Shown here: piece by piece, positions 25,694-43,182 of the stretch
Position numbering within the stretch: position 1 is the first letter of the stretch
Layout: the number at the start of each line of letters is the position of its first letter
Virus record (IMG/VR): IMGVR_UViG_3300009424_000023
Location: 1 to 50,259 of that record
Strand: one strand, 5' to 3'
DNA: 50,259 nt
Origin: a virus
Taxonomy: Duplodnaviria; Caudoviricetes
Notes under the pieces: model-generated
What the model saw: the letters and a program-made list of their open reading frames with translations, nothing else
Database searches by the model: none
What the model was told of the DNA's origin: nothing
Translations under genes and position numbers: made by a program

Positions 25694-25936
25694 CTACGAT
25701 GTGGCCAGCGTGCGCAGGAGTGCGCCTTTCTCTTTGGTTAGGTCAAGATACTCATCCGCAGCCGCGCGGTCTGTGATCGCTTTCCCTCGCAAATTGTCCA
25801 GAAGTGCATTCACTTGCGCAAGCCGGGCAGTCGCGCCAGCAGTGATGGCATCACCCTGCGAATCTACTTGACGCAGCATCGACGATGTTTGGCTGATGCA
25901 CTTACGAAGCTCTGAATTGCCTTGATCTAGTCCCAT
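25694..25936 (-). CDS. Hypothetical helical protein
   Basis: TAATG-coupled to upstream gene. Confidence 0.65.
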   Translation of the reverse strand: MGLDQGNSELRKCISQTSSMLRQVDSQGDAITAGATARLAQVNALLDNLRGKAITDRAAADEYLDLTKEKGALLRTLATS

Positions 25937-26274
25937 TACATCCCCGCGTCTTCATCGAATAACACAACCTCGTCACTATCCAGATCAATACTGATAGCAC
26001 GGCCCATGTTGTTTTCCCAGTTTGCTCGCCACATCAACAGAGCATCATGCATGGCGTCTTCGAAGTTGTCATATTCCGGCATCTTAGCAACCATGTCAGG
26101 CTGCTCGTACTCGCCCAGGAGGTACAAATTTTCCTTGGTGTAATACTTTTTCAGGAAAGCTTTCACAAAATACCAGTACACGCCAAAGTTGCGATAGTCG
26201 GCTGGCTTGTTATCCAGCACCTTGCGAATGTTGGCCGCGAGCTGGTCGGGCGGGAGCATTGTTGACGACATCAT
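25936..26274 (-). CDS. Ulx-like DarB accessory protein
   Basis: P..YRNFGVYWYFVK..L resembles the phage P1 Ulx motif as recalled from memory (PRLYRSYGPYWPEIKKLL); coupled to DarB-like gene. Confidence 0.55.
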   Translation of the reverse strand: MMSSTMLPPDQLAANIRKVLDNKPADYRNFGVYWYFVKAFLKKYYTKENLYLLGEYEQPDMVAKMPEYDNFEDAMHDALLMWRANWENNMGRAISIDLDSDEVVLFDEDAGM

Positions 26275-29200
26275 GCGGGTTCCTTATCGTAATTTTTCTG
26301 GCTTGCAGCAAGCAATTCATTAAGCCTATCACCCACCGTCTGGCTCTTGTCTTCTTGTGAAGAGTAATATCCTTGTGAGGCTGAAAGATTGCCATACCCC
26401 TGAATATCGCCGCGCTTTTTATCTAACAAACCCGCCGCGCCGGCCAGCTTCTGCATAGCGCGTATTCTTGCAGGTCTATGCTCATAGCCGTTGGCAATTG
26501 CCTGCAACGCCTCTTCATGCTTTCCATCTTTGTGATGCCGCAAACCGGATTCAACCATTGCATGTACGAGATCGTCATGCCCGGCACTCGCAGCAAGCCC
26601 AAGAATAGCGGCATGAACCGACTTCGCCTTATCTCCAAGGAAATAGTTGTTATGCTTGCCGTATTTACCGCCATACGATTCTGATTTTGGCTCATGTGTA
26701 TCGATAGCACCACCCAGCACGCCAAGGTGCCGCGCCTTCGCCCAAAGTGCGGCAATCGCTTTCTTGGGGAGCTTAACCCGCGCGCCATACCCTTTGTCGG
26801 CATCTTGAATCTCACCCAATGGAGCAGCAGCATCAAGTGCCTCGGAGAACGTTTTTGCATGGCGGATGCGCTCGTTTTGTTCAGCGATCAGCTTTTGGCG
26901 AATCGGCTTAACCTCTGGAGAGTCGCCATCTCCATAGTAATACCCACCGCCAGAATACTTCCCGCTCAAATCGCCAATGATGCGTGTCCACGGATTGCTG
27001 TTACCATCTACACCGAGCCCATATTTGCGCTTGGCGCGCGTTACGGTCTTTCCGCCACGACGCCCAACGCTTGCGGTATCAGTGCCAAACGAAGCCGCCC
27101 GCTCGGCATCCATCCACGCCTGAATTGCTTTCTGCTTGTTCTCTTCGGTCGGTAGCATGAAGTCATGCGTATCTGGCCCATATCCCTTGCTGTTGCCGCT
27201 GACTTCATAGCTAGGAACAATTACCGGCTGCCCTGTAGCTTTGTCTATCAGCGCAACGCTGCCATGACCCGCGCTGACCTTGTAATTTCTCAATCCGTCC
27301 CACAGTTGGCTTTGCAGCTTGTCATGGTTTGCCGAGATCACCGATGGAGGCAATTTCATCACATCGCTGACTTGCTTAATTTCCAGTGGCTTTTCAGCAA
27401 TCTTGCGGCTGATTTCTTCCGTTTCCGCCTTTTCGTCATAGGCGAATGCCTTGGGTTTCGGCATGTCCTTTATGTCCATCGTCATGCGGGATGGCATTTC
27501 CTGACCATACAAGCGCATCGCCACTTGCTGCTTACGTGGGTCAACGCCTTCGACCACATACCTTGCAACCTTATCGCCATCGGCAATTTCAATGCCTGCT
27601 CCAGCGTACATCATCGTCCCAGTGCTGGCGACGATCACGGGCGTATCTGAATCCAGCGCCTGTTTCGCAGTGAAATACTTATCCGCTTTGAGCGCCGAGT
27701 ATTCTTTGTCCAGCTTGGCTTTGAGTCGTGCCGCGCTCTGCGTATCCTTGTTTTTCAGGGCAGCGTAGCTACGCTTGACCTCTTGGAATTTCACAAAGCG
27801 CTGCGATGCCTCCGCCGTCCTTCCGGCGACTAGGCGCTCTTCCTTGGCTTTGTGATTAGCCTCGAATGCTTCGCGCGCTTGGTCTGGGTCGGCTGCCAGC
27901 ATAATCATCATTTCATCACGGCTCACATTCCCCTGCTGGTTCATGTTTTCCACTTCGTTGCCGCCCTTCCAGACGGCATCCTGCCAGTCTTTCTTGGCTA
28001 AAATCGCCTGCAACCGATAGCCGTCGAAGCTACCTTTTGCCAGATATGCGTGAACTCTAACGCCCTCGTTTGTATTGCCCTGGCGTAAGCCACGCCCATT
28101 TCGCTGCTGCATGGATGCGGGCTCCCACGGCAAGTCGAGATGGTGAATATCCGAAGTGCCCTTTTGCAGATTCAGCCCCTCGCCCATCGTGGCCGTGTTG
28201 CCGATCACCACTTTCAGCTTGCGCGCGTTGAACGCATCGCAAATGCTTTGCCGCTTGGATGATGAGGATGCAACTTGCGCATTGATGATGCCGATCTGGT
28301 TGCGCGGGATACCGGACGCAACAAGCGCAGCGGCAATTTTCTCGTGAGAATCGACGTAATCAGAGAAAACAATCTGTCCGCCATCCTTCATATTCTTGAT
28401 GATTTCCTGAGCACAGGTAATGTATTTCGGGCTTTTTGTTCCATCGTAATCGGGGTCAAGCAAGGATAGATCGACAGCGGCCTTGTTCATCTTGTCCATG
28501 ATGCTGAAAATATGCGCGTCTCCGGTCGCATCTTTCCCTTTTGCTTCCGCCGCCAGTTCGCGCAATTCTGAATAGGCAGATTCTTGCTCCGCATCCATCG
28601 TAACCATGTGCGTGACATCCTGCCTCCCCGGCAGCTTCAATCCGACCTCATCCGCAGTTTGGCGATGAATATAGCGCTTCATGATCGCGCGGAGCTCATC
28701 CATATTTTGGAAGCCAGCAGTAATCAGCGCCTCTTCCATCTTTCCGCCTGTATCAAGCGCCATGCCATTTTCGAACTTGGCAAATCGGTCAAGGAACTCT
28801 TCGCTATTGCGTACGCCGATCTTCTCGAATGCTTCCGGCGCGACATGCGACAGCATGGCGTAAATCTCAATCGGGCTATTTTTGGTTGGCGTGGCCGTCA
28901 AGCCGTACACGTTCTTCCCATTTTGCTGATCGAGCAACCAGCGCGCCTTGAGGTTAAAATCAAGCGCACGCATTGATAGCCCGCCACCGCCCAGATACTT
29001 GGGCGACTCACCAAAGCGCGACTTGATCGCGCACAGGTTCTTTTGGTGATGGAATTCGTCATGAATCAGCGCATCCACCCCAAGGCCGTTGAAGTACGTC
29101 GCATCGGTACGAGAGTCTTTCCCGAATTCCTGACTCGCGCGCGCCTGTTCCCAGCTTTCGCGGATCTGCTTGGCGCGCTTATCGCCAGCATTGCCCAGCT

Positions 29201-32200
29201 TGTCGCCACGCTGCACCCAGAAATCCTTGCTGTTGTATTCACCCTTGGTGATTGGGTCTAGGTCAATTTCCTCAAATGACGGCTCGCTGCAAATGATGAA
29301 GTCGTATTCGTTTTGCTGAAGATCATGGTATTTACGCTTGCGCTCAGCGGCATTGTCATCCTTGCCTTTGAGAGAGCCATCAGCAAGTCGTTCAAAGCTT
29401 CCGCCGATGGTGAGCACCTTGCTCCCTGGGAACCATTTCTCGCACTCATCGAACCAGTTGGCGAGAACGGACTTCGGCACCACGATCATCGGACGTTTTG
29501 CCTGCCCAGTCGTTTTGAGCGTGCGCGCCAACATTAACGCCCGCGCTGTTTTACCCAGCCCGACATCAGCCGCAATGATTCCCTTGCCCGCGTTCAGCGC
29601 CCAGCGCAGCCCGCCCCACTGGTAGTCCTTCAATCCCTCGGTATTCATACCGGGAATATCCATAGGCTCATTCGAGAATTCCCGTTCAGCGAAGCCCCTG
29701 AATTTTCTGTTGTACAGGTCTTCGGCTATTTCGCGGTATTCCGGCGATGCGCAAAGCCAGTCTTTGAACTCCACGTTCAGGTCATCAATGATGTGCTTAT
29801 CGTCTTTTCTCAGGCCGGTGCGGTTCAGGTACTTATCGAGGTGCGATTGCTCGCCATATCCATTTCCACCGGTGATCGCGTAAACGCCATCTTCGAACGT
29901 AACAACCACCGGGGGTAACTCTTTCTGCCACTTATTGCCGTTCTGGTTTCTTGATGTCAGGAATGCAGACAAAATTGACGTTGGCAAGAAAGCCGAGTTC
30001 ACCTGGATAAATGCATCCTCCAATGAGACAGGAGCGATTGTTTCTGTCAGCATAGTTACTTGCTGTTCCAGCTTCTTGCGTTGCTCAGGTGCCAATCCCT
30101 CGCCAGACAGCGCCGCCTTCGCGAAATCTGCCTTAGCCCACAGATCGCCGGACAGGTAGATGTCTTTTGTTGTCCATTCGCCAGTCACTGGGTCAATGGC
30201 GTACTTCGGGGATCCATAAAGCTGGTCTAGCGCCTCTTCTCTATCTAGCTCCGCCGCCTTTGCCAGCCTGTCTACACCAACAGTCTCATGGTCATTAAGT
30301 AATGACTGAACCGTGGCCTCAAATGAGCCCATCTGCTGTTTAGCCACCTTGCCAGTTACCGCATCGGAGAGTTCGCCATTCGATTTAACCGCACCGATCA
30401 ACCGGTACAGCGCCTTGTCCTGCTGCGCACCAAGTAATACGTCCTTGTTCTTCGATGGAATACCGTGCGCCTCAACCCATTCACGCAAGTCTTTTTCGAG
30501 GGCAGGACGATCAACGGCAGTCATGCCATCCATCAGCGCATCAATCCGCGCGGCGATGTCTTGCCCTTGTTTCAACGCTTCCGATTGCAGCACCTCGTCA
30601 ATACGATGCCAACGTGGCGGATTACCCTGCAGCACATAAACTACGCCGTCCACCGTCTTGGTATCACCAACCTTTGAAGTGTCAGCATATGGGCGATTCA
30701 TTGCACCGCCCATCACCATAGAACGTGCTTTCTCGTCACCACCAACAGCGGTCAGAATGTCAGTTACAGCCGGAATTTCCTTGCCGTCTTCCGGTGAAAA
30801 CTCAGCGAGCGCTTCTGGCACGCCACTCATGGAACCTTCGACAGTAATGTCCGCACCCATACCGGCTTTTGCGCGCCAACCATCACCCATCTTGCCCAAC
30901 ACATTCTCCGCACCACGCCCGGTGAAGTATTTGCCCGCAAGGAACTCTTCGTCCCAGACGCCAAGTGCTTTTAAGTGATCTTGCTTGACTGCGGAAGATG
31001 ACAGCGCACCGGCCACATCATCTGGAAACTTGCGGAACCACACCACGTCGGTTGTCACCTCAGTATGCGAATGCTCGAATGCAGTATTCGGCATACGCTG
31101 AGCACCAAGGAACTGCCCCTTGCGCAATAGCGCCTCACGCAACTTGCGATTTGTGCGCGAATCCATGATGCCAGTCGGCACGATCAGGCCGACAATACCG
31201 CCAGCCTTGCACTTATCCATCGCCGTGTCGCAGAAATACGCATCCGCCGTTTTCAAATTAGGCTTGTCGTCCTTAATCAGCGACCCGCGTAGTCCAAATG
31301 GCACATTGCCCAGCACGCCGTCATATTGACGCTCATCCTGAGTAGCGAATCGCTCGAGGCTGGCATTTGCAATCTCATGGCGATCACCATGCAGCGCTTT
31401 GGCTATTTTGGCCGATGTCTCGTCCATTTCAACGCCGGTCACTTTAGAATCTGCCGGCGCGGTATGCAAAAACACACCGGGGCCGCAGGATGGCTCAAGC
31501 ACTTCACCCTTCACGCCGAGACGCTGCGCGACCAACCACATGGCACTTGCCACTTCGGGCAAGGTGTAGAACTCATTCAGAGAATCGCCACAGCCGCCAT
31601 TGCCTGAGTATTGGCGCAGAATCGCTTTGTCTTCGTCTGAGTATTCTCCCCCACGGGCTACGATAGCGGCGGCTTGCGTATTCAGGTCACGGCGGGCTTG
31701 CTTGCTGATGCCGGCCTGCACCCCAAAAGGAAGCGATGCGTCAACATTGCCAACCTGGACAGATGCAAGATTAGAAATCCGCGCATCCTCGGCGGCCATT
31801 GCATCCGGCGTGCCGTCAGTTCGGCGCTCTAACAGGCGCTCGTAGCGGCTTTTCGACTCTTTTGCTACGGTTTTTTGTGGATTCTCTGCGGTAACAGGCT
31901 TCGAAATAGCAACTTCACCGGGCTTGAGGTGCTTTTCGCGGATGAACCAGCCGCCCAATTTCTTGAATGTGTAGGGGTCAATCTCCATCGCCTGATCTTT
32001 GGTCAGATCAGTACGCACAATCCCGCGCAAAGTCTTACCCCTGCCTGTGATGTGCTCAACAATAGCGTGCGGAACAACGATGTCCCCGGCATGGCTAGGC
32101 GCTACATGTTCGTTTTCTGCTTTTTTTTCGACATGTTTTTCCGATGTGTCGATTGAATCAACATGTTTTGGCGGTGCTGCGAATAGATCAGCTTGCGGCG

Positions 32201-32591
32201 CTGGCTCCGGCTTTATGTTGTCGAACATCGCCGCGACTTCAACAACAGACTTTCCGCCCAGCTTTCCCATTTCCTCAAAAATGCGCTGCTGTTGGCCGTC
32301 AGTCATTCCAGACATGAGGTGTGCGAGGTTGCCTAGCCCGCCATGCTTGATGATGAAAGCCTCTAGGCGTGCTGAATGCTTGTCCTTCTGGGGCTCTTCT
32401 GAGTTACCGAATAAATCTGGCTGCGCAGGCTTTTCAATGCGTACCTTCTGAATTCGAGTGTGTGCCTGCGTAAAATGCCCGCGCTTATCTACCGATGCGC
32501 CGACCTGCACGGGCATCTCGATCAACTGGAATTGCTCTGACTTGAAGAATAGGCACCGAACGGCACCGAGACGCGAGAATAGGGTTTGCAT
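26271..32591 (-). CDS. darB: DarB-like N6-adenine methyltransferase + SNF2-type helicase (antirestriction, head-packaged)
   Basis: VLEPSCGPGVF (motif I), GNVPFG (motif IV variant), ADVGLGKT, DEFH, TATP, QRNGRGLRQGN; 2106 aa. Confidence 0.8.
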   Translation of the reverse strand: MQTLFSRLGAVRCLFFKSEQFQLIEMPVQVGASVDKRGHFTQAHTRIQKVRIEKPAQPDLFGNSEEPQKDKHSARLEAFIIKHGGLGNLAHLMSGMTDGQQQRIFEEMGKLGGKSVVEVAAMFDNIKPEPAPQADLFAAPPKHVDSIDTSEKHVEKKAENEHVAPSHAGDIVVPHAIVEHITGRGKTLRGIVRTDLTKDQAMEIDPYTFKKLGGWFIREKHLKPGEVAISKPVTAENPQKTVAKESKSRYERLLERRTDGTPDAMAAEDARISNLASVQVGNVDASLPFGVQAGISKQARRDLNTQAAAIVARGGEYSDEDKAILRQYSGNGGCGDSLNEFYTLPEVASAMWLVAQRLGVKGEVLEPSCGPGVFLHTAPADSKVTGVEMDETSAKIAKALHGDRHEIANASLERFATQDERQYDGVLGNVPFGLRGSLIKDDKPNLKTADAYFCDTAMDKCKAGGIVGLIVPTGIMDSRTNRKLREALLRKGQFLGAQRMPNTAFEHSHTEVTTDVVWFRKFPDDVAGALSSSAVKQDHLKALGVWDEEFLAGKYFTGRGAENVLGKMGDGWRAKAGMGADITVEGSMSGVPEALAEFSPEDGKEIPAVTDILTAVGGDEKARSMVMGGAMNRPYADTSKVGDTKTVDGVVYVLQGNPPRWHRIDEVLQSEALKQGQDIAARIDALMDGMTAVDRPALEKDLREWVEAHGIPSKNKDVLLGAQQDKALYRLIGAVKSNGELSDAVTGKVAKQQMGSFEATVQSLLNDHETVGVDRLAKAAELDREEALDQLYGSPKYAIDPVTGEWTTKDIYLSGDLWAKADFAKAALSGEGLAPEQRKKLEQQVTMLTETIAPVSLEDAFIQVNSAFLPTSILSAFLTSRNQNGNKWQKELPPVVVTFEDGVYAITGGNGYGEQSHLDKYLNRTGLRKDDKHIIDDLNVEFKDWLCASPEYREIAEDLYNRKFRGFAEREFSNEPMDIPGMNTEGLKDYQWGGLRWALNAGKGIIAADVGLGKTARALMLARTLKTTGQAKRPMIVVPKSVLANWFDECEKWFPGSKVLTIGGSFERLADGSLKGKDDNAAERKRKYHDLQQNEYDFIICSEPSFEEIDLDPITKGEYNSKDFWVQRGDKLGNAGDKRAKQIRESWEQARASQEFGKDSRTDATYFNGLGVDALIHDEFHHQKNLCAIKSRFGESPKYLGGGGLSMRALDFNLKARWLLDQQNGKNVYGLTATPTKNSPIEIYAMLSHVAPEAFEKIGVRNSEEFLDRFAKFENGMALDTGGKMEEALITAGFQNMDELRAIMKRYIHRQTADEVGLKLPGRQDVTHMVTMDAEQESAYSELRELAAEAKGKDATGDAHIFSIMDKMNKAAVDLSLLDPDYDGTKSPKYITCAQEIIKNMKDGGQIVFSDYVDSHEKIAAALVASGIPRNQIGIINAQVASSSSKRQSICDAFNARKLKVVIGNTATMGEGLNLQKGTSDIHHLDLPWEPASMQQRNGRGLRQGNTNEGVRVHAYLAKGSFDGYRLQAILAKKDWQDAVWKGGNEVENMNQQGNVSRDEMMIMLAADPDQAREAFEANHKAKEERLVAGRTAEASQRFVKFQEVKRSYAALKNKDTQSAARLKAKLDKEYSALKADKYFTAKQALDSDTPVIVASTGTMMYAGAGIEIADGDKVARYVVEGVDPRKQQVAMRLYGQEMPSRMTMDIKDMPKPKAFAYDEKAETEEISRKIAEKPLEIKQVSDVMKLPPSVISANHDKLQSQLWDGLRNYKVSAGHGSVALIDKATGQPVIVPSYEVSGNSKGYGPDTHDFMLPTEENKQKAIQAWMDAERAASFGTDTASVGRRGGKTVTRAKRKYGLGVDGNSNPWTRIIGDLSGKYSGGGYYYGDGDSPEVKPIRQKLIAEQNERIRHAKTFSEALDAAAPLGEIQDADKGYGARVKLPKKAIAALWAKARHLGVLGGAIDTHEPKSESYGGKYGKHNNYFLGDKAKSVHAAILGLAASAGHDDLVHAMVESGLRHHKDGKHEEALQAIANGYEHRPARIRAMQKLAGAAGLLDKKRGDIQGYGNLSASQGYYSSQEDKSQTVGDRLNELLAASQKNYDKEPA

Positions 32592-32618
32592 GGTGTCACC
32601 ATCTAAGGGGTTCCCCTT

Positions 32619-32634
32619 ATGGTGACATCACGAC
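32619..32634 (-). promoter_or_regulatory. Putative late promoter for DarB-like gene
   Basis: GTCGTGAT-gtcAccaT. Confidence 0.65.
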
Positions 32635-32641
32635 ATAGCGG

Positions 32642-33202
32642 TTATAACTTGGAGATGATTTGTTCGTATTCGCGGACAATCGCACTCGCTGGTGCTATTT
32701 GCCTCTCGGTGAAAATTTCAGCCAGGCTACGGTAATACCACAGCGTTTCATCCTGACTCGCCGTGAATCGGTCAAATACCGATGCGCCGACCTCGACTAG
32801 ATCAAGGTGGATAGACTGGATGTTGTGCAATTTGTCACAGGCCGAAACCAGCAGTGCATCGTCAGGCGTTTCTACCAAATGCGCCAAGTATGCCTCCTTG
32901 CGAACGCGCCACGGTGCTTTCTTCCCTGTTTTGGCATCCGGCGTACCATCAGTGCAGGCGCGAACGATAGACAATACGCGATCACCGAATTCCGCGATAC
33001 GCACGGCCCACCCTTCGCCAGCATCTTCGAGAACATCATGCAGCAACGCGCCAATTTGCTGATCTTCATCGCCTCCATAGCGAGCTACCAGCGCAGCGAC
33101 CGCGACGGGGTGAGTGATATATGGGATGCCAGTGCCTTTGCGCTCTTGCCCTTCGTGGGCTTCGGCAGCAACGGCTAACGCTTTTGTGAATCTTGGGGTC
33201 AT
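32642..33202 (-). CDS. Mesh1/SpoT-type HD hydrolase (small alarmone hydrolase family)
   Basis: AHEGQERKGTGIPYITHP, ALLHDVLED, ACDKLHN. Confidence 0.9.
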   Translation of the reverse strand: MTPRFTKALAVAAEAHEGQERKGTGIPYITHPVAVAALVARYGGDEDQQIGALLHDVLEDAGEGWAVRIAEFGDRVLSIVRACTDGTPDAKTGKKAPWRVRKEAYLAHLVETPDDALLVSACDKLHNIQSIHLDLVEVGASVFDRFTASQDETLWYYRSLAEIFTERQIAPASAIVREYEQIISKL

Positions 33203-33222
33203 TGTGTGCTTCCAGAAATGCG

Positions 33223-33246
33223 AAGCCGCCCGAAGGCGGCTTTGTT
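33223..33246. terminator. GC hairpin between small ORF and HD gene
   Basis: AAGCCGCC-CGAA-GGCGGCTT; T-tail better on + (TTTGTT) than on - (TTCGCATTT). Confidence 0.6.
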
Positions 33247-33457
33247 ATGCGGGTTGAGCTTGCTTTTGGCTTTCTGCGATAGCCTGCTTGATATAGTCAG
33301 GCGCTGAATCTTGGGCATCCTGCAATCTTGCCTGCTTTTCTTTCAAATACTCAGGCGAAGAATCGCAATCGCTTCTAATTTCGCTGTACCCATCACCGCC
33401 ATACTCGGGGGCTTTGCCGCCGCAGTAGTTCTTGGGATCCAGTTTTTTGCCGCTCAT
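33245..33457 (-). CDS. Small protein (70 aa), candidate antitoxin
   Basis: Start MSGKKLD with SD GGAGG; ATGA overlap with the zeta gene stop. Confidence 0.7.
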   Translation of the reverse strand: MSGKKLDPKNYCGGKAPEYGGDGYSEIRSDCDSSPEYLKEKQARLQDAQDSAPDYIKQAIAESQKQAQPA

Positions 33458-35334
33458 TGTTTTACCCTCCACACCACAATCATACTCTTCAGCAACGACT
33501 TGCGCAAAATCTCCTTGCTCTTCATGGCGGGCTCACCACTTTGCGAAATCAGAATTGGTTTTTCACCCTTTGCCACGTTGTTGTCTCTGAAAGACCATGC
33601 ATCAACCATCTTCCTGACTTGATCGAACGCGGCCTCATTAGTGGTGTTCGACAGCACAATTTCAGGCGGCACAAAGCGGCCAGACTCTCCGCCATCGAGG
33701 AATCGTTTCACTGCGCGCTTACCCGCCTCCTGTCTTGGCAGGTGCATGTAGTGCGCTTCCGTCCGGTACCCAGACTTCTTGAATTTCTCGACATCGGCAA
33801 TGGCCGACTTGGCTGTTTTCATGGTTTTGTCCAAAACCACGTTCAACCCCATGATGCGGGCGAAGTCTGCGACATGATCGAAAAGCTCGCCGGATTCCTC
33901 ATGTACCTGGTGCGCATTCCATCCTTCATACTCTGGGAGCATCGACTTGATGTGATCGGCATCTAGCACAATACAGCGATCAGGCTCGTACACTTCGCCC
34001 TTGAATGAAGACTTGCCAGAACCGCCTCGACCACCAAGGATAATGAAAGCTGGCTGTTCGCCCTGCGGAGGGCGTGCCGCTTTGATTCTTTCGGGTGACA
34101 GCAAGCCCGGTATTTTTACGTCCTTGCCATTTTCATCCTTGCCCATCACGCCGTCGTACAAGATTTTCCGGTGAAGTTCCTGCCGCTCCGGCGTCCACTT
34201 GCCATCGGTCATGAACTTATCAAGCGTTTCCTCAATGTTTTTCAGCCGATCTTGAGCCGCTGCAATCTTCTCTTTCGTGTCGGATGGGAACTCAGCGATG
34301 ATACTTTCCGGCGAAACGTCAGCCTGATCGTGCGACTTTGCATAGTCGGTGGCATTGAATGACTCAGCCGGAATCGGCTCTTGCTTGCCAAGCACAACCG
34401 GCTTTTTAGATTCATCATTTTTGGGCGGCTCTTCGCCTTCCGCAACTGGCTTTCCGTTTTCGCCGGGCGGTTTCTTTCCGCCACCGTCGCCGCGATCAGC
34501 CTTGAATCCGGTCACTTCATGCCAATGCACGTTATGCAATCGGCCAGATGCATCCTCTACCTGAGTTCCATCCTTGCCGATTGCTTTCACCTTGCCGCCA
34601 CCGGAAAACTCGCCAGCCTTGAAATGGATTGTGTCACCCTCTTCGATATTGTGTGTTCCGTAGCCATGTGCAGAACCGCGAACGTCCTCGGCGTCGTGCG
34701 CCGTCGGTTCCTGTGGTGGCTGTTTGGCAGACGGGCGCGCAGCGGGCGCTGCCTGCATCTGTTTCATTCGCTTATCGTCATGTTCTTCAACGACAGTGCC
34801 ATCCTTACGGGTGTATTGCTTGACGTGTGATTTCAGGAAAAGAATGCGCGGATTGGCTGATTTCACCATAACACGCGGTTTCGATGCTTGAAGAAGCTGA
34901 TCTTGCACGCTGACTATCAGACTGCGTGTACTTTTTGTTTTATGGGACGGAATGGCAAAGCCTGCGCGCAACAGAACCTCTCTCGCCCTTTCGTAATCCA
35001 TGTAGGTTAGCTGGTCAATTGCAGACCGCAGATCGCCATAATTCAAATAGTCGCGCAATTCATCCGCATCTTGTTTTGCCGAACGCTCACCGGCCTTAAT
35101 TTCAGACTTCGTTTCGCCGCTAAACATATCCGGCGTGTAGTCTTCCGGCCTTTCCAAGGCTGCAACTGGAATATCTCGCTTTGGAGATGGCGGAACATTA
35201 CGCGCAAACATATCGGCAGTTCGATCATCGTCTGCACGGCTAGTGCGCCTATTGAAATGCGCAGGCACAAACACGCCTTTCTTCGTTACATAGGCGCTGA
35301 CATGCGACTTGAAAAATAAGATTTTCGTTTCCAT
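33454..35334 (-). CDS. Multidomain protein with C-terminal zeta-toxin-type P-loop kinase
   Basis: ERQELHRKI, ILGGRGGSGKS, DADHIK, VHEES, VVLDKTM, RAVKR...GRFVP, DNN. Confidence 0.88.
   Translation of the reverse strand: METKILFFKSHVSAYVTKKGVFVPAHFNRRTSRADDDRTADMFARNVPPSPKRDIPVAALERPEDYTPDMFSGETKSEIKAGERSAKQDADELRDYLNYGDLRSAIDQLTYMDYERAREVLLRAGFAIPSHKTKSTRSLIVSVQDQLLQASKPRVMVKSANPRILFLKSHVKQYTRKDGTVVEEHDDKRMKQMQAAPAARPSAKQPPQEPTAHDAEDVRGSAHGYGTHNIEEGDTIHFKAGEFSGGGKVKAIGKDGTQVEDASGRLHNVHWHEVTGFKADRGDGGGKKPPGENGKPVAEGEEPPKNDESKKPVVLGKQEPIPAESFNATDYAKSHDQADVSPESIIAEFPSDTKEKIAAAQDRLKNIEETLDKFMTDGKWTPERQELHRKILYDGVMGKDENGKDVKIPGLLSPERIKAARPPQGEQPAFIILGGRGGSGKSSFKGEVYEPDRCIVLDADHIKSMLPEYEGWNAHQVHEESGELFDHVADFARIMGLNVVLDKTMKTAKSAIADVEKFKKSGYRTEAHYMHLPRQEAGKRAVKRFLDGGESGRFVPPEIVLSNTTNEAAFDQVRKMVDAWSFRDNNVAKGEKPILISQSGEPAMKSKEILRKSLLKSMIVVWRVKQ
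33479..33507 (-). promoter_or_regulatory. Sigma70-like promoter inside 3' end of zeta gene
   Basis: TTGCGC-N17-TATGAT, upstream of the GGAGG and ATG of the 70-aa ORF. Confidence 0.65.
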
Positions 35335-35340
35335 TGTTTT

Positions 35341-35356
35341 ATTGTCCCGTCACGAT
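35341..35356 (-). promoter_or_regulatory. Putative late promoter, leaderless, for zeta gene
   Basis: ATCGTGAC-gggAcaaT-aaaaca-ATG(35334). Confidence 0.7.
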
Positions 35357-38300
35357 CAAAAAAGCGACTCATTAGCTTGGGACACCTTGCGCTGATGCAA
35401 GAATGCCGCCAAACCAGTGTCATCAAGCCCCTCGAATGAACTGCTCATCAACTCGCGCAAGGCGTATTTTGTTTTCAGACGCTCCCGCGCATTGCGCTCA
35501 CTTGGGTGATCGGCGACCAAATCCATGAGCTCTACATCATTCTTTTGCCCAATGCGGTGAATTCGTCCCGCCCTTTGCGCATGTGTCATGGCCGTCATGG
35601 GACTGTCAAACTGCGTCAGCCACTGGCCTGACTGCAAGTTCGCCCCGGTTGCCCCAGCATCCGATGCAACCATGATGTCGTGCGTGCGGTCGCCCTTATC
35701 AGGATTGAACCCGCGAATCTTGGCTGATTTATCGACGGATGAATCGGCCCCAGTCAGCGTCATGACGCGGTGTCCATCTTTTTCGAGACGCGCTTTGATG
35801 TTCTGCACCGCCTCCAATGAGTGCGCGAATACCACGCCCGGCTTTCCCTTGCGCTCATTGGCGATGCTGGCAAGAGCATCAATCTTGGCCGAATCAGGGC
35901 TCGAATCAAGAATTGCCCGGACAGCAGAGCCCTTGATGATGCCGATGCTGGACGATAGCTCTTTGGCAATCGCCTCGTGCTCAGACTCAGGCGCATCTTT
36001 GAAGTGCTCAGGTGAGATTGCTTTCATCGCCTCGACATCAACCTTGCCCTCCATGCGCGCCATCCGCACGCGACCTAGATTCTTGTCCAGATCGGAAAGC
36101 GCCTTGATTTGGGATTCGGTTGGCTTTACTGCAATCTCTTTCTTGTCCGCACGTATCTTTGGTTCAATCTTGAATGGCAACACATGCCGGATAAGCTCGC
36201 GCTTCAACGCATCCTGCGCGCCTTGAGTATTCACGCCGTACCGGCGCATGAATGCCGCCGTGTCGCCGTAACGCTTGGGATCCATCTTTTTCATGATGTC
36301 AGCCGCCTCGGATAGGTCATTCTTGATGACATCGGCGGTGCTATGAATATAGAACTCGCTATTGGCAGACACAGAATCAACCACATTCGCCATTGCGGAA
36401 TTCTCTTTTCCCGCACGATTGAGCGTGTTGTGCGCTTCATCGGCAGCCAGAAAGTCGTAATTGATACCCTCTTTTGCCATCACTCCCTTCATCCACGCGC
36501 TACGCTGCTCGGGCTGCATTGCCTCAAGACGCGCACTCATTGATGCCGCGTCAACGCCCGCATGTTGCGCGCCAAGGTGGAGCATGTCATCGCGGAAAGA
36601 CTGGTGCGTCATAACCGTGAAGTGATGCTTAGGGTCTTTGTATGCGGCAATTCGCTCGTCGCGCGAAGCGCCCGGCTCACAGTGCCAGCTATATTTGCCA
36701 GGCTCCATGAAGCGCAGCGCCTCAGCGCCGATCTGCCCTTGAACAATTGACGGAACAAGGAATAGACCGCGCTTTGCCTTGCCTTGAGATTGCAGGTGCG
36801 AGAATGCCCCAAGCATCATTGCCGTTTTTCCGGCTCCGGTACCAGCCGCCAGCGCCACGCGCTTATTTTTCTCAATGATCTTGATCGCCCGTTGTCGCAT
36901 CACCCCATCGGGGCCCGACATCGTTGGGCTGAACAATTTCAGCGGGCGTCCCGGCTTAAAGTTTTGCCCGACAACGGGCATCATTGCCGCAATGGTGCGC
37001 TCGGCAGCATGGCCTAACGTGTAACGTTCATCGGAAGATAGTGGTTTTTCAGCCTTGGCAGGCGTGTCGCCAAACATGTCAGGCTCTTGCTCGGTAGAGA
37101 AAAATCCCATTTGCGACTGGTTGAACGCTTCCTGCTCTTCCCTCGCGGCATCGAGCTTGTCACTCACACTACCGGCGGCATATTTCCCTTGGCTACGCTC
37201 GCGCAGGCCGTCGATCAATGCACGTTCTTTTGCTTCACGGGCTAACCTTGCCTTGGGGTCAACTGCGTCTAGGTGGTTCAAGTTGTTGCGCACCACTTGC
37301 CGCCCCAGCTTCAGCGGCGCGTTTGGATTGAGCTTGTTGTAATTCTCATGGAATGACTGCCCGACTTTCGAGCGGATTAAATCTTGCACCGACGCATAGG
37401 CATTTTCGTGCCCGTGCATGGCATCGGCATACTTCGCCCACGTCAGGGAAGATGCATTCACCTCTTCTGCCAGAGCGTCACGCTGGGATTTCCATGCCTG
37501 CCATTCTGGGTTTGAGGTTGTTTCGCCAAACATATCCCGAACTTCTTTTTCAGGCTCAATGTGCGCCATGCCGTCAAGGCGCTCGCGCAATATCTCGGCC
37601 TCGTCACTCTCATGGGCCACATTGGCATGAAAGAACTTGCGCAATGTCTGTTGATCGTCGGTTGTGAGTTCGCCAATCGGCTTGTATGCGGCTATACCTT
37701 CCGGGGTATCGGATAACGCGCGGTGTAGCGCATCTTGTGCCACGGCATCAGATTCGAAGTTTTGCCGCTGTATGGTCGCGATCTTTCCGCCGTACTCACG
37801 CTGCACAAAGCTATCGGCATAGTCATTGAACACGCCAGCCAAGTCTTCATTCCGCAGTAGCTTGCCGTCCTTGTCAGTACGAGCCGCGACTTCATCCAGT
37901 GCTTCGCGATAGGCTTCCGTATTACCCGACTTCTGAAAAAAGTCTGCCGACTGCAAGTCTTCAACTATCGCATCAGGCGAATCGCCATCCGCCGCACGAC
38001 CGCCGATGTAATCCCTGATTGATTGCCGCATATCGCCTGATGGCTTGAACGGTCTGGCAAGTGTCGCGGCCACGCCGGGCTTTAAGTCCAACGCCAAGTC
38101 TGGCCGCTTCGCAAATCCTTGCGGCAACCAGTCATCCTCATCATGCTCACCGTTAAGGATGGCGAGCGTATTTCGCGTGCGGTCAAGCTCTTCGCGATCA
38201 ACTGGCTTTGCCAGGCGGTCTAATCCGTCCGGCGTAATGGTCAACACCTGATTGCCGGCCACCCGGTCTATTGAGTAATCGCCACGCTGCAATCCGATGG

Positions 38301-41163
38301 CGCGCACCTGCCTAATTGCATCTTCGTCAGATACCTTGCCAAGCGGCACTTCCATCGACTTATCGGAGCGCCCGCCCTTGAGCGCCGTGACCAGCGCCGC
38401 ATTGGCTTCCATTTCGCCCAGCGCCGTCCCGAGTATCTTGTGCGCCTGTTCAACAGCCGCTTTTCGACGATGTAGCAACTCTCGCGCCGCTTCAAAATCA
38501 GCGCCGTGACTGGCTTCTCCAAGCCCGATTTCCTTCGCAGCATCGTGCAACTCTTGCGCTTCCTGCATGGCCTCTTTCGAGGTTTCCATGTAGTGATGCA
38601 GGTGAAAATCTTCCATGCCAGACGTCAACTTGTCCATTTCATCGGCTGGTAGATCGGCGTGTAAGCGGCGCGCCAATACCTGCGCCGCCCCCTCAACACC
38701 AAGCACATCGACAACAGAGCGGTCTATCAGCGCAGCGCCACCAGCAGTAAGCGCCAAGGCGTTGATCGAGTTGAATGCGCCAGCACCGATATGTCGGCGC
38801 ATTGCCTTTTCTGGCTCGTCCGCCTCTTTGTCTATCGTGGACAGGAATGCCTTGGTGCGGATGGTGCGCAAGTCATTCTCAATATCGGCCTGAATGTCAG
38901 AATCTTCCGGTGCGGACACCTCAAGGTTGTACGCCTTGACCTCTTTTGCCTCGTCAATGTCTTTGTTCGCTGCTTGAGCGGCCTTTTGCACCGCCTTCCA
39001 TTCCTTTTGAGCTTTGATGAGCTCAACCGCATCTGATGCGGATGCCAGCGTAGCTTTGATGCTTGATGCTATCGGTTCACGAATCGTCTCAAGCTCAGAC
39101 TTGATCTGCCGGGCAGTATCGCCACGCGCTTTAATCGCAGATCGTTGCGCCTCCGACATGATCGACTGCCTTGATTCTTTCTTCCCGGCAGCCTCTTGCT
39201 GAATTTCCTCTTGCGTTGCCCCGTTGGCGGCAGCACGTTCCGCGTAGTGCGCTGAGAATCCAAGCCCGCTCATGCTCTGAGGGTGCGCATCATCCAAGTC
39301 TGAAATATTGAGTTTGGCAGAATCTGAATGCTCATTCGGCTCAACCGATACGCCGCCCGCCTCTTCGCGCGCCATCGCGTCAGTCAGCAAGTTCTGATGC
39401 TGTAACTCGACAGCCGCATTAGCCCGTTTCAGTAGTTCGCTATGGTGGCGGTGTTCAATCTTTTGCTTTGTGGCATCGGATACGTTTTCAGGTATCTTGG
39501 GCTCAAGGTCTTCCGCCTTCCACCCCATCTTGTCGGCAACTTTTTGCACGAAAGCCTTGTCGGCCATTCGCCTTTGCGACTGCACGGACTCGCGCGCCTG
39601 TTTTTTGCCGTGATCGATACCCAGTTCTTTATCTCGCGCACGCTGTTGTTTTTTCGCATCGCGCTTAGTCTTTGCGCTTTCCGCTGCGTGCTCTTTGTAG
39701 CTGGACTCTGGTTTAAGCCCGCGCAACTTGAGGTAGTTCAGCTTGCCGCCGGCCCCGCCGATGACGTGAAATACTCCCGAGCCATGCTGCGCCTCCTGCA
39801 CCATCACGGGCACACCAGTCGAGCCAGCGCCGTTTGGGTGAACAGTGATCCAGCGTTGACCAGGCGCAAGCGCCTTAACCAGAAGGTCATCATCAACGAA
39901 TGAAAACTGCGCACCAGTAAGTTCGTGGCGATTGCCATTTGGGAAAATCAGGCTGATCGACTTAATCATCCGCCCATTAGCAGCCTTCGCTTTTTCGACA
40001 AAGGCATCCACTGGAATGGCGGTGATCGGCCCAAGGAAACGCGGGTCATCATAGTGCTTGAGATAAGCGGCGCGGGCATCATCTTCCGATGCAAAGTTCA
40101 ACATGCACTTGTCTTCATCGTAGTGCGCCCAGTCGCCATACTTGCGCTGATGCACCACATAGACTGTATCGGCATTCTCATCAGGGCCGATGTACACATC
40201 AACCTGATCACCATCGCTTCCCTCGGTCGAATTGATGTACCCGTATGCGAAAAGCATCTTGGTTTTCCAGCCATTACCTTTGCGGATAGATCCGGGCTCG
40301 TTTTCAATCGAGATAGTCAGCCCGTGCCATGCCATCTTTCGCTTGGCATAGTTTCCGGCCTCGGCCTGCGCTGGAGTAGGAGTCTCTGTTAATTCACCCC
40401 CATCTATCGCCTTGACCAATTCGGCCAAATAGCGGATAGTGTCGTCTTGGGGCCAGCCAATACCTGTGTGTGCCCCGCCAAGCTCGAAAGAGCCTGCCAA
40501 TGGCGTGCAGTGCAAATTGGTAAACATGGTGGAATCATCGGTTTGCAATGATGATTCAAACGAAGCCCCAACAGACTTCCTGATTGGGGATTCGACTTTT
40601 TTGACTTCAATTCCACGCATCTTGGCTGGCCTGTATCCTCCCTTATCAGATGGCGCAGTTAATCTCTTGAATTCATCGTGTGGCCAATAATGATATGAGC
40701 GGAAGCGATACTCTTTTTCGTCAGGACGCCATTCCAAAACAACCACATCGTGATCGCCATGCACAACACGTTCTATAAATAAATCTCTTGAACCGTTTTC
40801 AAGCACAACACCAGGGTTAGCCAGCGTATCAATGATCGCGCTCATACGCTGTGCGCGCTCAGGCCAAAATACGCGCTTTTCATTTACCGTCTTTGTATAA
40901 GCGTGCCATTGGTTATCATTCATATTAACCCTGACACGACGCAAGCCGCCTTTACGCTTAATAACTATCGACCAATTACCGGCAATATGATCGGCGTAAT
41001 ACTGCTTCGCTTCAGACAATGATTGAATATGAGAAGAAGGAGGCAACCATGCTGAATAATCGCCATCAACAGGGGCTGATATAAACCTGCCAGTTGTTTT
41101 GGCGTGGTATGGATTGCCTTGAGATTTGGCAAGCGTAAGAGAATCGAAGTCGGTAGCATTCAT
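35356..41163 (-). CDS. Polyvalent protein: PBECR-like nuclease + inorganic pyrophosphatase-like domain + SF2/SNF2 helicase
   Basis: Start reassigned to MNATDF (1935 aa); HAYTK...ERAQRM..I.DTL.NP; AGNYAK...ISIEN..GS.R...YGYI...G.DGD.VDVYIG...DEDK; AGTGAGKT, DEAH, GANLQ, QRAGRIHRIGQ. Confidence 0.8.
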   Translation of the reverse strand: MNATDFDSLTLAKSQGNPYHAKTTGRFISAPVDGDYSAWLPPSSHIQSLSEAKQYYADHIAGNWSIVIKRKGGLRRVRVNMNDNQWHAYTKTVNEKRVFWPERAQRMSAIIDTLANPGVVLENGSRDLFIERVVHGDHDVVVLEWRPDEKEYRFRSYHYWPHDEFKRLTAPSDKGGYRPAKMRGIEVKKVESPIRKSVGASFESSLQTDDSTMFTNLHCTPLAGSFELGGAHTGIGWPQDDTIRYLAELVKAIDGGELTETPTPAQAEAGNYAKRKMAWHGLTISIENEPGSIRKGNGWKTKMLFAYGYINSTEGSDGDQVDVYIGPDENADTVYVVHQRKYGDWAHYDEDKCMLNFASEDDARAAYLKHYDDPRFLGPITAIPVDAFVEKAKAANGRMIKSISLIFPNGNRHELTGAQFSFVDDDLLVKALAPGQRWITVHPNGAGSTGVPVMVQEAQHGSGVFHVIGGAGGKLNYLKLRGLKPESSYKEHAAESAKTKRDAKKQQRARDKELGIDHGKKQARESVQSQRRMADKAFVQKVADKMGWKAEDLEPKIPENVSDATKQKIEHRHHSELLKRANAAVELQHQNLLTDAMAREEAGGVSVEPNEHSDSAKLNISDLDDAHPQSMSGLGFSAHYAERAAANGATQEEIQQEAAGKKESRQSIMSEAQRSAIKARGDTARQIKSELETIREPIASSIKATLASASDAVELIKAQKEWKAVQKAAQAANKDIDEAKEVKAYNLEVSAPEDSDIQADIENDLRTIRTKAFLSTIDKEADEPEKAMRRHIGAGAFNSINALALTAGGAALIDRSVVDVLGVEGAAQVLARRLHADLPADEMDKLTSGMEDFHLHHYMETSKEAMQEAQELHDAAKEIGLGEASHGADFEAARELLHRRKAAVEQAHKILGTALGEMEANAALVTALKGGRSDKSMEVPLGKVSDEDAIRQVRAIGLQRGDYSIDRVAGNQVLTITPDGLDRLAKPVDREELDRTRNTLAILNGEHDEDDWLPQGFAKRPDLALDLKPGVAATLARPFKPSGDMRQSIRDYIGGRAADGDSPDAIVEDLQSADFFQKSGNTEAYREALDEVAARTDKDGKLLRNEDLAGVFNDYADSFVQREYGGKIATIQRQNFESDAVAQDALHRALSDTPEGIAAYKPIGELTTDDQQTLRKFFHANVAHESDEAEILRERLDGMAHIEPEKEVRDMFGETTSNPEWQAWKSQRDALAEEVNASSLTWAKYADAMHGHENAYASVQDLIRSKVGQSFHENYNKLNPNAPLKLGRQVVRNNLNHLDAVDPKARLAREAKERALIDGLRERSQGKYAAGSVSDKLDAAREEQEAFNQSQMGFFSTEQEPDMFGDTPAKAEKPLSSDERYTLGHAAERTIAAMMPVVGQNFKPGRPLKLFSPTMSGPDGVMRQRAIKIIEKNKRVALAAGTGAGKTAMMLGAFSHLQSQGKAKRGLFLVPSIVQGQIGAEALRFMEPGKYSWHCEPGASRDERIAAYKDPKHHFTVMTHQSFRDDMLHLGAQHAGVDAASMSARLEAMQPEQRSAWMKGVMAKEGINYDFLAADEAHNTLNRAGKENSAMANVVDSVSANSEFYIHSTADVIKNDLSEAADIMKKMDPKRYGDTAAFMRRYGVNTQGAQDALKRELIRHVLPFKIEPKIRADKKEIAVKPTESQIKALSDLDKNLGRVRMARMEGKVDVEAMKAISPEHFKDAPESEHEAIAKELSSSIGIIKGSAVRAILDSSPDSAKIDALASIANERKGKPGVVFAHSLEAVQNIKARLEKDGHRVMTLTGADSSVDKSAKIRGFNPDKGDRTHDIMVASDAGATGANLQSGQWLTQFDSPMTAMTHAQRAGRIHRIGQKNDVELMDLVADHPSERNARERLKTKYALRELMSSSFEGLDDTGLAAFLHQRKVSQANESLF
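40412..40440 (+). promoter_or_regulatory. Antisense sigma70-like promoter inside polyvalent gene
   Basis: TTGACC-N17-GATAGT. Confidence 0.55.
40447..40602 (+). ncRNA. Candidate structured antisense small RNA
   Basis: Between promoter and terminator; hairpins GCTC-GAAA-GAGC within CGCCA/TGGCG, GAATCATC/GATGATTC, terminator CGAAGCCCCAA...TTGGGGATTCG-AC-TTTTTT. Confidence 0.55.
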
Positions 41164-41170
41164 GCCGCCC

Positions 41171-41186
41171 ATAGTGAAGTCACGAC
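41171..41186 (-). promoter_or_regulatory. Putative late promoter for polyvalent gene
   Basis: GTCGTGAC-ttcActaT-gggcggc-ATG(41163), 15-nt spacing. Confidence 0.7.
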
Positions 41187-41191
41187 ACTGG

Positions 41192-42016
41192 CTAGGTTGC
41201 GCCAACAAAGTCCCTGAAAAATTCACCTCTTACCCAATGCGCGCGGTGTTTTTCCATTATATCGGCCTCATACCGTCCGGCATCATTTACCTGGCACTTC
41301 AATAGCAGTTGCCCAGATTGCCCGAACTGATTTGTAAAATGGCGGAACCTATCGTTATGATCCTCGCTTGTCGTGCTCCCGAACTTCAATAGTCCGTTGC
41401 TCATTTTTGCGATGTAAAACCATCCAGGCTTCCCAGAGGTTTTACCGCTCTTCGCCAATTTGATGTTTGTTGCTGGGCTTGCTCTATATTTGCGGGTCAA
41501 CCCGTCCGACATTTTCTTGCAGTGCTCTTGCGTCATTTTTCGCTTTGACCACGGAGCATTTCCGTTTTGTTGCCACGCGCTGATTCGCCCTCGCGTTTCT
41601 TCGGAGACTTCCCTTCCGGTCATGCGGATACGCGTCTTCTCTATCGCGCAACACATCAACCCCTTGCCATCAGAGATTATGCCTCTTGCCATAACCTCGA
41701 AGGTTTTGCCGTGAGCTGGACATTTAACGGTGATTTTATTGTCTGTTCCGCGATATTCGCCAACCAACTCATAACCCAGCGCGGCAATGCGCTTCCGCAC
41801 TTCCTCAACAGTCAATGCCGAGCTCTCAATGCCACAGCATTTCATGCCCTGCCCACGGAATATATTGGCTGGCATTACTTCATCCACAAAGCCATGGCGC
41901 TTGCATTCGACAGCAACTTTGGTATGCGCATTCTTGTAGCTGGCACGCAACACAAACCCATGCGCCACGAACCTCGCTTCAGCCTCGAATTGCGTCAATT
42001 TTTTACCGGCTGCCAT
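41192..42016 (-). CDS. Free-standing homing-endonuclease-like protein (Zn-ribbon repeats, NUMOD3-like, GIY-YIG/T5orf172-like)
   Basis: Start MAAGKK with SD AAGGA; two C..HG...G..CC repeats; VSEETRGRIS; WFYIAK...KFGST...R...E...GEFF. Confidence 0.7.
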   Translation of the reverse strand: MAAGKKLTQFEAEARFVAHGFVLRASYKNAHTKVAVECKRHGFVDEVMPANIFRGQGMKCCGIESSALTVEEVRKRIAALGYELVGEYRGTDNKITVKCPAHGKTFEVMARGIISDGKGLMCCAIEKTRIRMTGREVSEETRGRISAWQQNGNAPWSKRKMTQEHCKKMSDGLTRKYRASPATNIKLAKSGKTSGKPGWFYIAKMSNGLLKFGSTTSEDHNDRFRHFTNQFGQSGQLLLKCQVNDAGRYEADIMEKHRAHWVRGEFFRDFVGAT

Positions 42017-42018
42017 GC

Positions 42019-43182
42019 CTATCCTTTCTTTTTGGCAAAATGCTCTTTTAGCCACTCCGAGAACTTGGGGTCGTCGTTTGGTTTCGCCGATGCAACCTCG
42101 ACAAACCGCCCCCTGCAATGCGGGTGTATTGCCCCTGGAACAATCTTTGCCAATTCAGAATCGCCACGCTTAACCAACTGACCGCCAACTCGCCTATACG
42201 GGGATGATGAACGGGTGTGATTATCCTTGCCAGACCAGACCTCAGTATCCCAGTTTTTATTGGGCTTGTCAGGCGGCACAACCGTCATGATTGTGCCATC
42301 GATCTTGCGGCAGAAGTCACACGCACCGGCATATTGCTCCATGCGTTTTACCTTCGTTCCCGCTTTGAGCGAACCGATGAACCCGTTTCCGCTCATGTTG
42401 GCGGCCTCGGTGAGCGCAATTCTGCGCCAATCCTTGTTGAGTACAGCGAATTCGTCCAGCAACTTTCCTTCCAAGTTGCGCTTCGCCATTGCCGACGGCA
42501 CGCCTTCGAACTCTTCTTTCTTCCAGTTGACCACCGCAAGCTTCATTCTGACGCGCGACGACTCAGTTACGTTCGCCACATACTGACAGCAACGGTGTTG
42601 CCCAAAGTCTATGGCGGCCTTTTGCGCCGATGTCATGCCGAAATCGCGTTGGATTATATTGAGATCAACAGGCATTTTCGCCGCCGCTGCGCCAGCCGCG
42701 ACCGCCGCCATTTCCGGCATGTGCTTTTGAACCCGCCCCATCATGGATGCGCGAGTGACTTGCCACTTGGCATCGTCCATCATCACATCCTGGGGAAGGT
42801 ATTTCTGGACAAGGTAATCGACGACCATCATCCAGTCATCAAGGGTAAATACCTCCGGTGGGAGCGCTTCAAGGTACAGCTTGGCACCTTCAAGCTCATC
42901 TTTTCCCCAGCGGACAAACATCTTTGGCTTGGGAACAGGTGTTTTGCTCGGCTTGTGAAAGCCGCCCTTAATCCACTTCATCAGCTCGGCGAGAATCTTG
43001 CCAAGGCGATCTAGCCCGAACGATGTCCACTTCTCGATGAGATCACGAATAAATGGCGACTCATGAGGACGCCAAATGTCGTGGTCATCATCATGCAGCG
43101 CCTTGTGCATGTCTTCCAGAACAGAATCAGATGCGCAGCAGGACAGCGGGCCGATGTCGATAAGCAGAGGGGTTCTATTCAT
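42019..43182 (-). CDS. MuF/SPP1 gp7-like minor head morphogenesis protein
   Basis: WRRIALTE, ACDFC...DG, IHPHCRG. Confidence 0.85.
   Translation of the reverse strand: MNRTPLLIDIGPLSCCASDSVLEDMHKALHDDDHDIWRPHESPFIRDLIEKWTSFGLDRLGKILAELMKWIKGGFHKPSKTPVPKPKMFVRWGKDELEGAKLYLEALPPEVFTLDDWMMVVDYLVQKYLPQDVMMDDAKWQVTRASMMGRVQKHMPEMAAVAAGAAAAKMPVDLNIIQRDFGMTSAQKAAIDFGQHRCCQYVANVTESSRVRMKLAVVNWKKEEFEGVPSAMAKRNLEGKLLDEFAVLNKDWRRIALTEAANMSGNGFIGSLKAGTKVKRMEQYAGACDFCRKIDGTIMTVVPPDKPNKNWDTEVWSGKDNHTRSSSPYRRVGGQLVKRGDSELAKIVPGAIHPHCRGRFVEVASAKPNDDPKFSEWLKEHFAKKKG

Follow-up and report, generated by a model that had tools for sequence, protein, structure and literature searches.

Phage polyvalent proteins contain ribonuclease (RNase) domains of the PBECR type (PF18809, PF18810, PF18812, MuF_C PF18819 and LPD13 PF18825), which, in the available part of the study that described them (PMC5512222), have a BECR-like fold with a histidine in a short N-terminal helix and a serine in the last strand, a layout shared with colicin D (bioRxiv 10.64898/2026.08.28.747851). 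They are found in up to 26% of polyvalent proteins, as modules of polyproteins associated with the virion, where their neighbours are InPase, SF2 helicase, portal and MuF-like proteins; mRNA or CRISPR RNA (crRNA) was proposed as their target, and the same part of that source leaves target and immunity partner unestablished (Iyer et al. 2017, PMC5512222). According to the accessible text of the preprint, the colicin-like BECR RNases characterised so far are mostly tRNA cutters (bioRxiv 10.64898/2026.08.28.747851). The present analysis concerns a 50,259-nucleotide sequence of a tailed phage (Caudoviricetes; IMG/VR record IMGVR_UViG_3300009424_000023; hereafter the window), whose minus strand encodes, in a long polyprotein gene, a predicted RNase domain with the same layout and similar neighbouring modules, and whose plus strand carries behind that domain a putative convergent promoter followed by a candidate structured RNA gene. 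Unlike the named PBECR families, the family in the window scores with no Pfam model.

Several toxin-antitoxin (TA) systems resemble this locus in part. Type III systems (ToxIN, CptIN, TenpIN, and AbiF with its noncoding RNA) join an RNase to a structured, often pseudoknotted cognate RNA, as the window may do. Their toxins have another fold, whereas that of the window is a predicted BECR fold inside a virion polyprotein, and their RNA is an upstream repeat array on the same strand that is cut by the toxin, whereas the RNA of the window is single-copy, lies downstream on the opposite strand, has its own promoter and belongs to a type often nested in a reading frame. No Pfam or PHROG match to the ToxN, CptN, TenpN or AbiF families was found in the window, and no Rfam match over the RNAs. 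In its proposed action the system resembles type III, a class to which it does not belong by the arrangement of its genes or the family of its toxin. In the convergent type I systems of prophages (txpA/RatA, bsrG/SR4), the antitoxin RNA likewise converges on the 3' end of the toxin gene, and the RNA of the window is, by position, complementary to the toxin mRNA. Type I toxins are small membrane peptides whose RNA pairs with the mRNA, whereas the window has a 183-aa soluble domain in a 1935-aa polyprotein, which is not a small hydrophobic toxin, and an RNA with a tertiary-type fold.

MuF polymorphic toxins are also phage head-module proteins with toxin domains that need self-protection; in the part of the source available, their immunity is a small downstream open reading frame (ORF) for 89.4% of 191 toxin genes, at the place where the window has an RNA gene (Jamet et al. 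2017, PMC5576092). An initial annotation of the window, made from its letters alone, knew of no description of such an arrangement, and no RNA behind PBECR domains was found described in the literature searched, which largely lay outside subscription journals and the supplements of structured-RNA catalogues (PMC10690425, PMC5737381). The words 'antisense' and 'noncoding' are absent from the main text of PMC5512222. Intergenic RNAs behind PBECR2 and PBECR3 domains could be listed as unassigned candidates in the catalogue supplements.

The main finding is that the promoter, the structured RNA and the terminator of the window (Table 1) are tied to the nuclease module, as the initial annotation had supposed, and are kept with it in homologues. 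All the elements that it listed were located, namely TTGACC-N17-GATAGT on the plus strand at 40412-40440, a GCTC-GAAA-GAGC hairpin, the GAATCATC/GATGATTC hairpin, and a terminator hairpin with T6; the -35 box does lie over codons (V-K) of a putative protease motif. Transcription is predicted to start near 40446-40448 (+). A promoter scan of 11 kb around the locus gave 4 sites against 8.0 expected by chance; among 15 promoter-like sites in the 50 kb, the one at 40412 has the strongest downstream hairpin and T run, and the hairpin at 40561 was not flagged by the terminator rule of the scan.

The homologue set comprised 15 nuclease units from 11 elements. One metagenome scan and two scans of viral sequences yielded identical copies only; these are excluded from all counts, as are the near-duplicates L012, L013, L018-L020 and L022-L025. 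An opposite-strand sigma-70-like promoter sequence, which faces back into the nuclease gene, occupies the same place in 14/15 units (10/11 elements) under a loose rule (TTG-N3, 17-nt spacer, -10 box with A2 and T6) that 134 of 99,829 positions satisfy (0.0013 per position). A stricter 9-of-12 rule holds in 9/14 units, and the other five, chosen by eye, miss it. The TTG of the -35 box is kept in all 14 scored units over a residue that varies (V, I, F, L or R), and the third base of the overlying codon is C in 14/14, compared with 74/146 in comparable motifs. A2 and T6 of the -10 box are also kept in 14/14, under a codon that reads AGT, ACT, AAT or AGA; it is AGT in 9/14 units, and AGT makes up only 8/132 serine codons of the window ORF. 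By these comparisons, the promoter sequence is selected at the DNA level.

The RNA of the window alone gave a fold z of -2.87, with 2/200 shuffles equally good. In an alignment of the window with L026, L027 and L028, gapless over 86 nt, the consensus (P1, bulge, P2, three-way junction and probable pseudoknot) is paired in 96% of cells, and 10/25 of its pairs are changed on both sides, a count reached by 0/500 shuffles; slid controls gave 0-1. P3, P4 and P5 are 100% paired with 6 pairs changed on both sides. The probable pseudoknot is 85% paired with 2 such pairs, the window itself forms only 3/5 of its pairs, and it is weak in 4/11 units (L017a, L017c, L017d and L021). Changes on both sides of P1 occur in L028 and the L017 copies, and P6 has a different sequence in L026 and L027 and is absent in L028. 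RNAalifold on nine units recovered P1, P3 and P4 independently with double changes, and a motif-anchored search found the common helices in 11/14 units, with pair counts that were fitted and are therefore inflated. A hairpin of -17 kcal/mol or lower with a T run closes 11/14 units. Moreover, an RNA model built from the four sequences detected three units that all follow a nuclease, namely L017b (E 3e-4), L017c (E 3e-3) and, at a greater distance of relationship, L014 (E 7e-3); it detected no second copy within the window. The RNA fold is under selection, and the homologues remove the doubt left by the window-only evidence on promoter and RNA. From the initial annotation, a structured RNA with a terminator stands, and its CGCCA/TGGCG helix, with only 55% of cells paired in homologues, was rejected. 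The supposed pairing of the 5' end with the terminator arm is, by eye, lost in L028 and L017.

No known family could be assigned to this RNA: Rfam gave no match at gathering score for the window and, by E-value, none over the RNAs of 10 + 17 further loci, and BLAST of the RNA against phage records returned only short chance matches. Known ribozyme and riboswitch cores, compared from recall and by eye, did not fit. In locus L011, two weak int-alpA RNA matches (5679-5758 +, E 0.15; 6447-6527 +, E 0.011) fell below gathering score.

The overlapping linker peptide is less constrained than the RNA. At four-fold degenerate sites, 47/59 comparisons are identical in the RNA region and 98/297 in that of the nuclease, from six pairs of sequences that are not independent. 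Compared with L028, protein identity is 43-50% for the linker and 56-65% for the nuclease, and the third positions of the linker are about twice as conserved as those of the nuclease. The L034 linker contains a stop codon, and 12/41 scorable homologues terminate 23-73 aa after the last strand. By these comparisons the peptide is dispensable, in line with the initial annotation. The opposite pattern, a linker peptide kept after loss of promoter and stems, was looked for, and the homologues show the reverse.

Nuclease and RNA also move and duplicate together as one module. L017 has four tandem nuclease copies and one fused to portal, and a separate promoter box and RNA accompany every one of the five; the helicase orthologues of phages PHB04 and Mecenats66, which begin past the nuclease position, have no such promoter or RNA. 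In L016 (3000-3170), promoter box, RNA and terminator remain beside only the last nuclease residues. Behind the fourth tandem unit of L017, another domain later in the same ORF likewise has an antisense TTGAAG-17-TAAACT box and stems downstream of it.

Recurrence of this layout behind other PBECR families goes beyond what the initial annotation had claimed. Ten PBECR2 loci over the cut-off were obtained from 301 genomes, and 9/10 have a convergent -10 box (at least 5/6) at 70-130 nt past the domain, a range picked after looking, against 44/1018 background windows. The unchanged 70-130 nt rule was satisfied by 2/4 PBECR3, 1/2 MuF_C, 1/3 PBECR1 and 2/4 sub-cut-off PBECR2 loci; several of the misses hold a 4-of-6 -10 box, some with a good -35 (L049, L056, L127). 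In L035-L044 and L047, which are Mu-like prophages, a convergent -10 box and an RNA of 70-110 nt lie behind the MuF-PBECR2 gene, often with a hairpin and T run, and in-frame convergent promoter boxes lie behind MuF_C, PBECR3 and PBECR1 within polyproteins of 1500-2900 aa in L049, L054, L127 and L128. The RNAs themselves differ: CCAAAGGAAC is common to the PBECR2-linked RNAs of L035, L036 and L047, for five PBECR2 RNAs, RNAalifold yielded no more than a weak consensus of 6 pairs, and the window RNA model found no match at PBECR2, PBECR3 or MuF_C loci. Each nuclease family carries its own RNA motif, which suggests cognate recognition. The convergent layout was not found in L045 and L048, where weak PBECR2-like matches are followed by a short ORF, or in phage Mu, whose F and G genes overlap with no promoter or terminator behind MuF-C; the available part of the source predicts this MuF-C to be inactive (PMC5512222). 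Just upstream of the PBECR2-like match of L047, at 567-603 +, lies one isolated direct repeat of the CRISPR type (RF01322), which at 52.4 bits exceeds the gathering score.

For PBECR3, the RNAs match the initiator-tRNA anticodon arm in 3/4 loci, with scores of 17 (L055), 14 (L057) and 12 (L056) against shuffle maxima of 9-10; L054 has no such match. The three arms share one loop difference, at position 38, and L056, whose RNA is a small three-way junction carrying the arm, has a compensated stem pair. In three genomes, the arm pattern occurs only in the PBECR3 RNA and at one other site, which ARAGORN lists as tRNA-Met in two loci. VapC and colicin D cleave between tRNA positions 38 and 39, and by this analogy the change at position 38 would suit an uncleavable decoy. 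In the window family, the pseudoknot helix followed by ACC resembles the acceptor end of the initiator tRNA, most closely in L028 (12/15 positions); this likeness ranks first in 8/11 units, ties included, with an AC(C) match that is circular, being the anchor. P4 equals the D-stem of 27/56 tRNAs and is not kept in the distant group, which makes it a lead only.

The 183-aa domain itself was predicted from several lines of evidence. It has no Pfam or PHROG match, and among the named PBECR Pfam models the best result was PBECR2 at E 0.1 in 1/28 family members, with the window domain unmatched. In the Atlas it lies near clusters of LPD13, MuF_C and PBECR (best 0.91), and 44 relatives occur among cluster representatives. 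In 28 aligned sequences, R84, R90, Y139, F141 and S143 are invariant and H74 is present in at least 90%. The structure model (predicted local distance difference test, pLDDT, 86) contains the BECR core, a helix and then four or five strands, with H74 on a short helix and S143 on the final strand. Judged by title, TA toxins, colicins or contact-dependent inhibition (CDI) toxins make up 23 of the first 26 structural matches, each at Z of 4.6 or less. Foldseek against PDB gave nothing at E 0.001 for this model, tblastn with three family members found no matches in phage and plasmid records, and an LPD13 search of 251 genomes found none either. The H74-helix/S143-last-strand layout matches the PBECR and colicin D arrangement, and the domain is predicted to be a PBECR-type, colicin-D-like RNase candidate of an unnamed family; Atlas neighbours and structural matches bear out the PBECR/RelE-type fold of the initial annotation. 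Its position between the portal and head protease genes suggests that the predicted nuclease is packaged in the virion.

Four aquifer metatranscriptomes (four study codes from one year, possibly one campaign) contain the stretch, as unstranded contigs. The deepest RNA contigs of the four runs start at 40457, 40456, 40511 and 40456 and end at 41618, 41447, 41595 and 40995, with depths of 38, 32, 23 and 9; the remaining contigs in the list have 2-7, and the comparison covers the listed contigs only. Three of the four contigs begin some 10 nt past the predicted start, which is a weak hint of plus-strand transcription from the 40446-40448 region.

The explanation that we consider somewhat probable is that the RNA is a cognate immunity factor, similar to a type III antitoxin, which binds and blocks the predicted virion-packaged RNase. 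In its favour stand the promoter consensus, the covarying fold, the synonymous constraint, the joint movement of nuclease and RNA, and the initiator-tRNA arm at PBECR3 loci. Host sigma-70 polymerase would transcribe a folded RNA of about 155 nt from the convergent promoter, and this RNA would bind and block the BECR RNase encoded just upstream on the other strand, probably as a poorly cleavable substrate decoy. The nuclease would be produced late within the polyprotein, cut out by the head protease at sites between K and S or K and A, incorporated into virions and then injected, and in cells without the RNA it would probably cut tRNA. The RNA, expressed by the prophage or, early on, by the genome that enters, would shield the producing cell and its lysogens; a further layer of silencing may come from antisense read-through. 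Several observations weigh against this account. One unit of the 15 (L034) has no identifiable promoter; 9/10 double changes come from L028 alone and hence mostly from one lineage; L015, L016 and L017e are without the bulge motif, their junction being kept by eye; and the T runs of L026 and L027 are poor. The unstranded RNA contigs extend 0.4-1.0 kb beyond the terminator, either by read-through or as sense RNA ending there, and such long contigs also fit antisense silencing or the end of a sense mRNA. Individual fold matches of the nuclease are weak (best Z 4.6) and Pfam gives no match. In the window RNA family, anticodon, whole-tRNA and rRNA mimicry are all no higher than in shuffles, and the acceptor-stem likeness to initiator tRNA is not significant (181/588 permutations do as well).

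An RNA immunity factor is favoured over four other readings. Complete complementarity by position raises silencing in cis, of a type I-like kind, in which the convergent transcript would pair or collide with leaky late mRNA and cause this mRNA to be cut behind or across the nuclease, and the fold would only stabilise the RNA. The deepest contigs, which start at 40456-40457 in 3/4 runs and reach 40995-41618, covering the nuclease wholly or for the most part, agree with this, as do the weak terminators of L026 and L027 and the known convergent antitoxin RNAs of prophages (txpA/RatA). Such silencing needs no conserved junction nucleotides, pseudoknot or initiator-tRNA arm, however; in 11/14 units the terminator halts transcription of the RNA just where the domain ends, and downstream structural genes would also be cut in lytic growth. 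It is an unlikely account of the RNA, and one that can coexist with an immunity factor. A role as cofactor or guide, packaged with the nuclease as a ribonucleoprotein to direct or activate cleavage of host RNA, is quite improbable. There is one RNA per nuclease copy, and the variable P2 and P5 extensions could hold specificity, but complementarity to 56 tRNAs and four rRNAs is not above shuffles (best 9-12 against 8-14), and the constitutive-type promoter fits protection better than late co-packaging. BECR RNases are moreover known as protein-only enzymes, as far as the available part of the source goes (PMC5512222), and we infer an antitoxin in preference to a guide or cofactor.

That the RNA merely travels with the nuclease as a decoy or regulator of a host or rival-phage enzyme, such as a defence tRNase, would be in keeping with the suitability of tRNA-like decoys for anti-defence and with the RNA that persists beside a nuclease remnant in L016. 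Its strict one-to-one position behind nuclease copies and its absence where the nuclease is absent make this very improbable. That the structure arose by chance in a protein linker, and the promoter as a by-product of the protease motif, is scarcely credible and largely refuted: promoter-like sites in the region are no commoner than expected and single-sequence fold z values are only -0.8 to -2.9, yet covariation, synonymous constraint and codon choice across different residues oppose it, and PBECR2 loci show the same promoter outside any protease motif. On a more speculative level, an RNA immunity factor may be general. Virion BECR RNases would then be widespread polymorphic toxins whose immunity is a small convergent RNA mimicking the target tRNA, placed in the spacer downstream of MuF or within the polyprotein frame, and each family would have its own RNA: the initiator-tRNA anticodon arm with one loop change in PBECR3, and a pseudoknotted three-way junction, maybe imitating the acceptor end, in the window family.

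If true, a cognate RNA behind each PBECR copy would explain why a phage is able to harbour an RNase of this kind, and RNA-antitoxin systems would gain a fourth toxin fold and a gene layout that is new to them. The RNA sequence may also hint at what the nuclease targets, an example being the initiator-tRNA arm of PBECR3. Screens of DNA phages that, in the part of the source available, are intergenic only (PMC10690425) pass over RNA genes that lie within reading frames.

Table 1. Coordinates of the features of the nuclease-RNA locus; positions are those of the window unless a locus is named.
Feature	Position	Strand	Evidence
-35 box TTGACC, overlapping V-K codons of the minus-strand ORF	40412..40417	+	promoter scan, homologues
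-10 box GATAGT, 17-nt spacer	40435..40440	+	promoter scan, homologues
5' domain: P1 40449-53/40472-76, 8-nt bulge 40454-61, short P2 40462-63/40470-71	40449..40476	+	covariation
Three-way junction: P3 40477-81/40517-21, P4 hairpin 40482-93, P5 40494-510, junction TGCAAA 40511-16	40477..40521	+	covariation
3' strand of probable pseudoknot, pairing with bulge nucleotides 40457-40461	40525..40529	+	covariation
Variable hairpin P6, GAATCATC/GATGATTC	40531..40558	+	fold
Intrinsic-terminator-like hairpin 40561-40594 and T6 40597-40602	40561..40602	+	-17.3 kcal/mol
Linker peptide read through the RNA gene	40412..40575	-	ORF list, homologues
Predicted BECR-fold RNase domain, 183 aa, H74, R84, R90, S143	40576..41124	-	alignment, structure model, structural matches
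Host polyprotein ORF: nuclease unit, InPase, SF2 helicase	35356..41226	-	Pfam/PHROG and ORF list
Initiator-tRNA-arm RNAs	L055 1415-1495; L056 1830-1915; L057 1410-1495	+; -; +	arm scores against shuffles

The window is a myovirus fragment whose minus strand encodes terminase, portal, head protease, major head and sheath genes. The polyprotein gene lies between the portal and head protease genes, and the stretch with RNA and promoter sits between the N-terminal unit and the InPase domain of its ORF, which measures 1956 aa from GTG (41226) and 1935 aa from ATG 41163, the probable start codon. The head maturation protease is encoded within the window, and the polyprotein contains 10 copies of the hydrophobic-x-K-S/A motif where 5.7 are expected, the head protease 5 where 0.9 are expected; cleavage at these sites is plausible.

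Additional genes of the head module (25936-35334 -) form a conflict cargo with a zeta-toxin-like protein of 626 aa, an HD hydrolase of 186 aa, a DarB-like methylase-helicase of 2106 aa and a Ulx-like protein. Just upstream of the polyprotein, a homing-endonuclease-like gene (phrog_681, CapR domain) is inserted at 41192-42118 -; it contains, at 41332, a promoter-like site on the plus strand that is followed after 202 nt by a hairpin.

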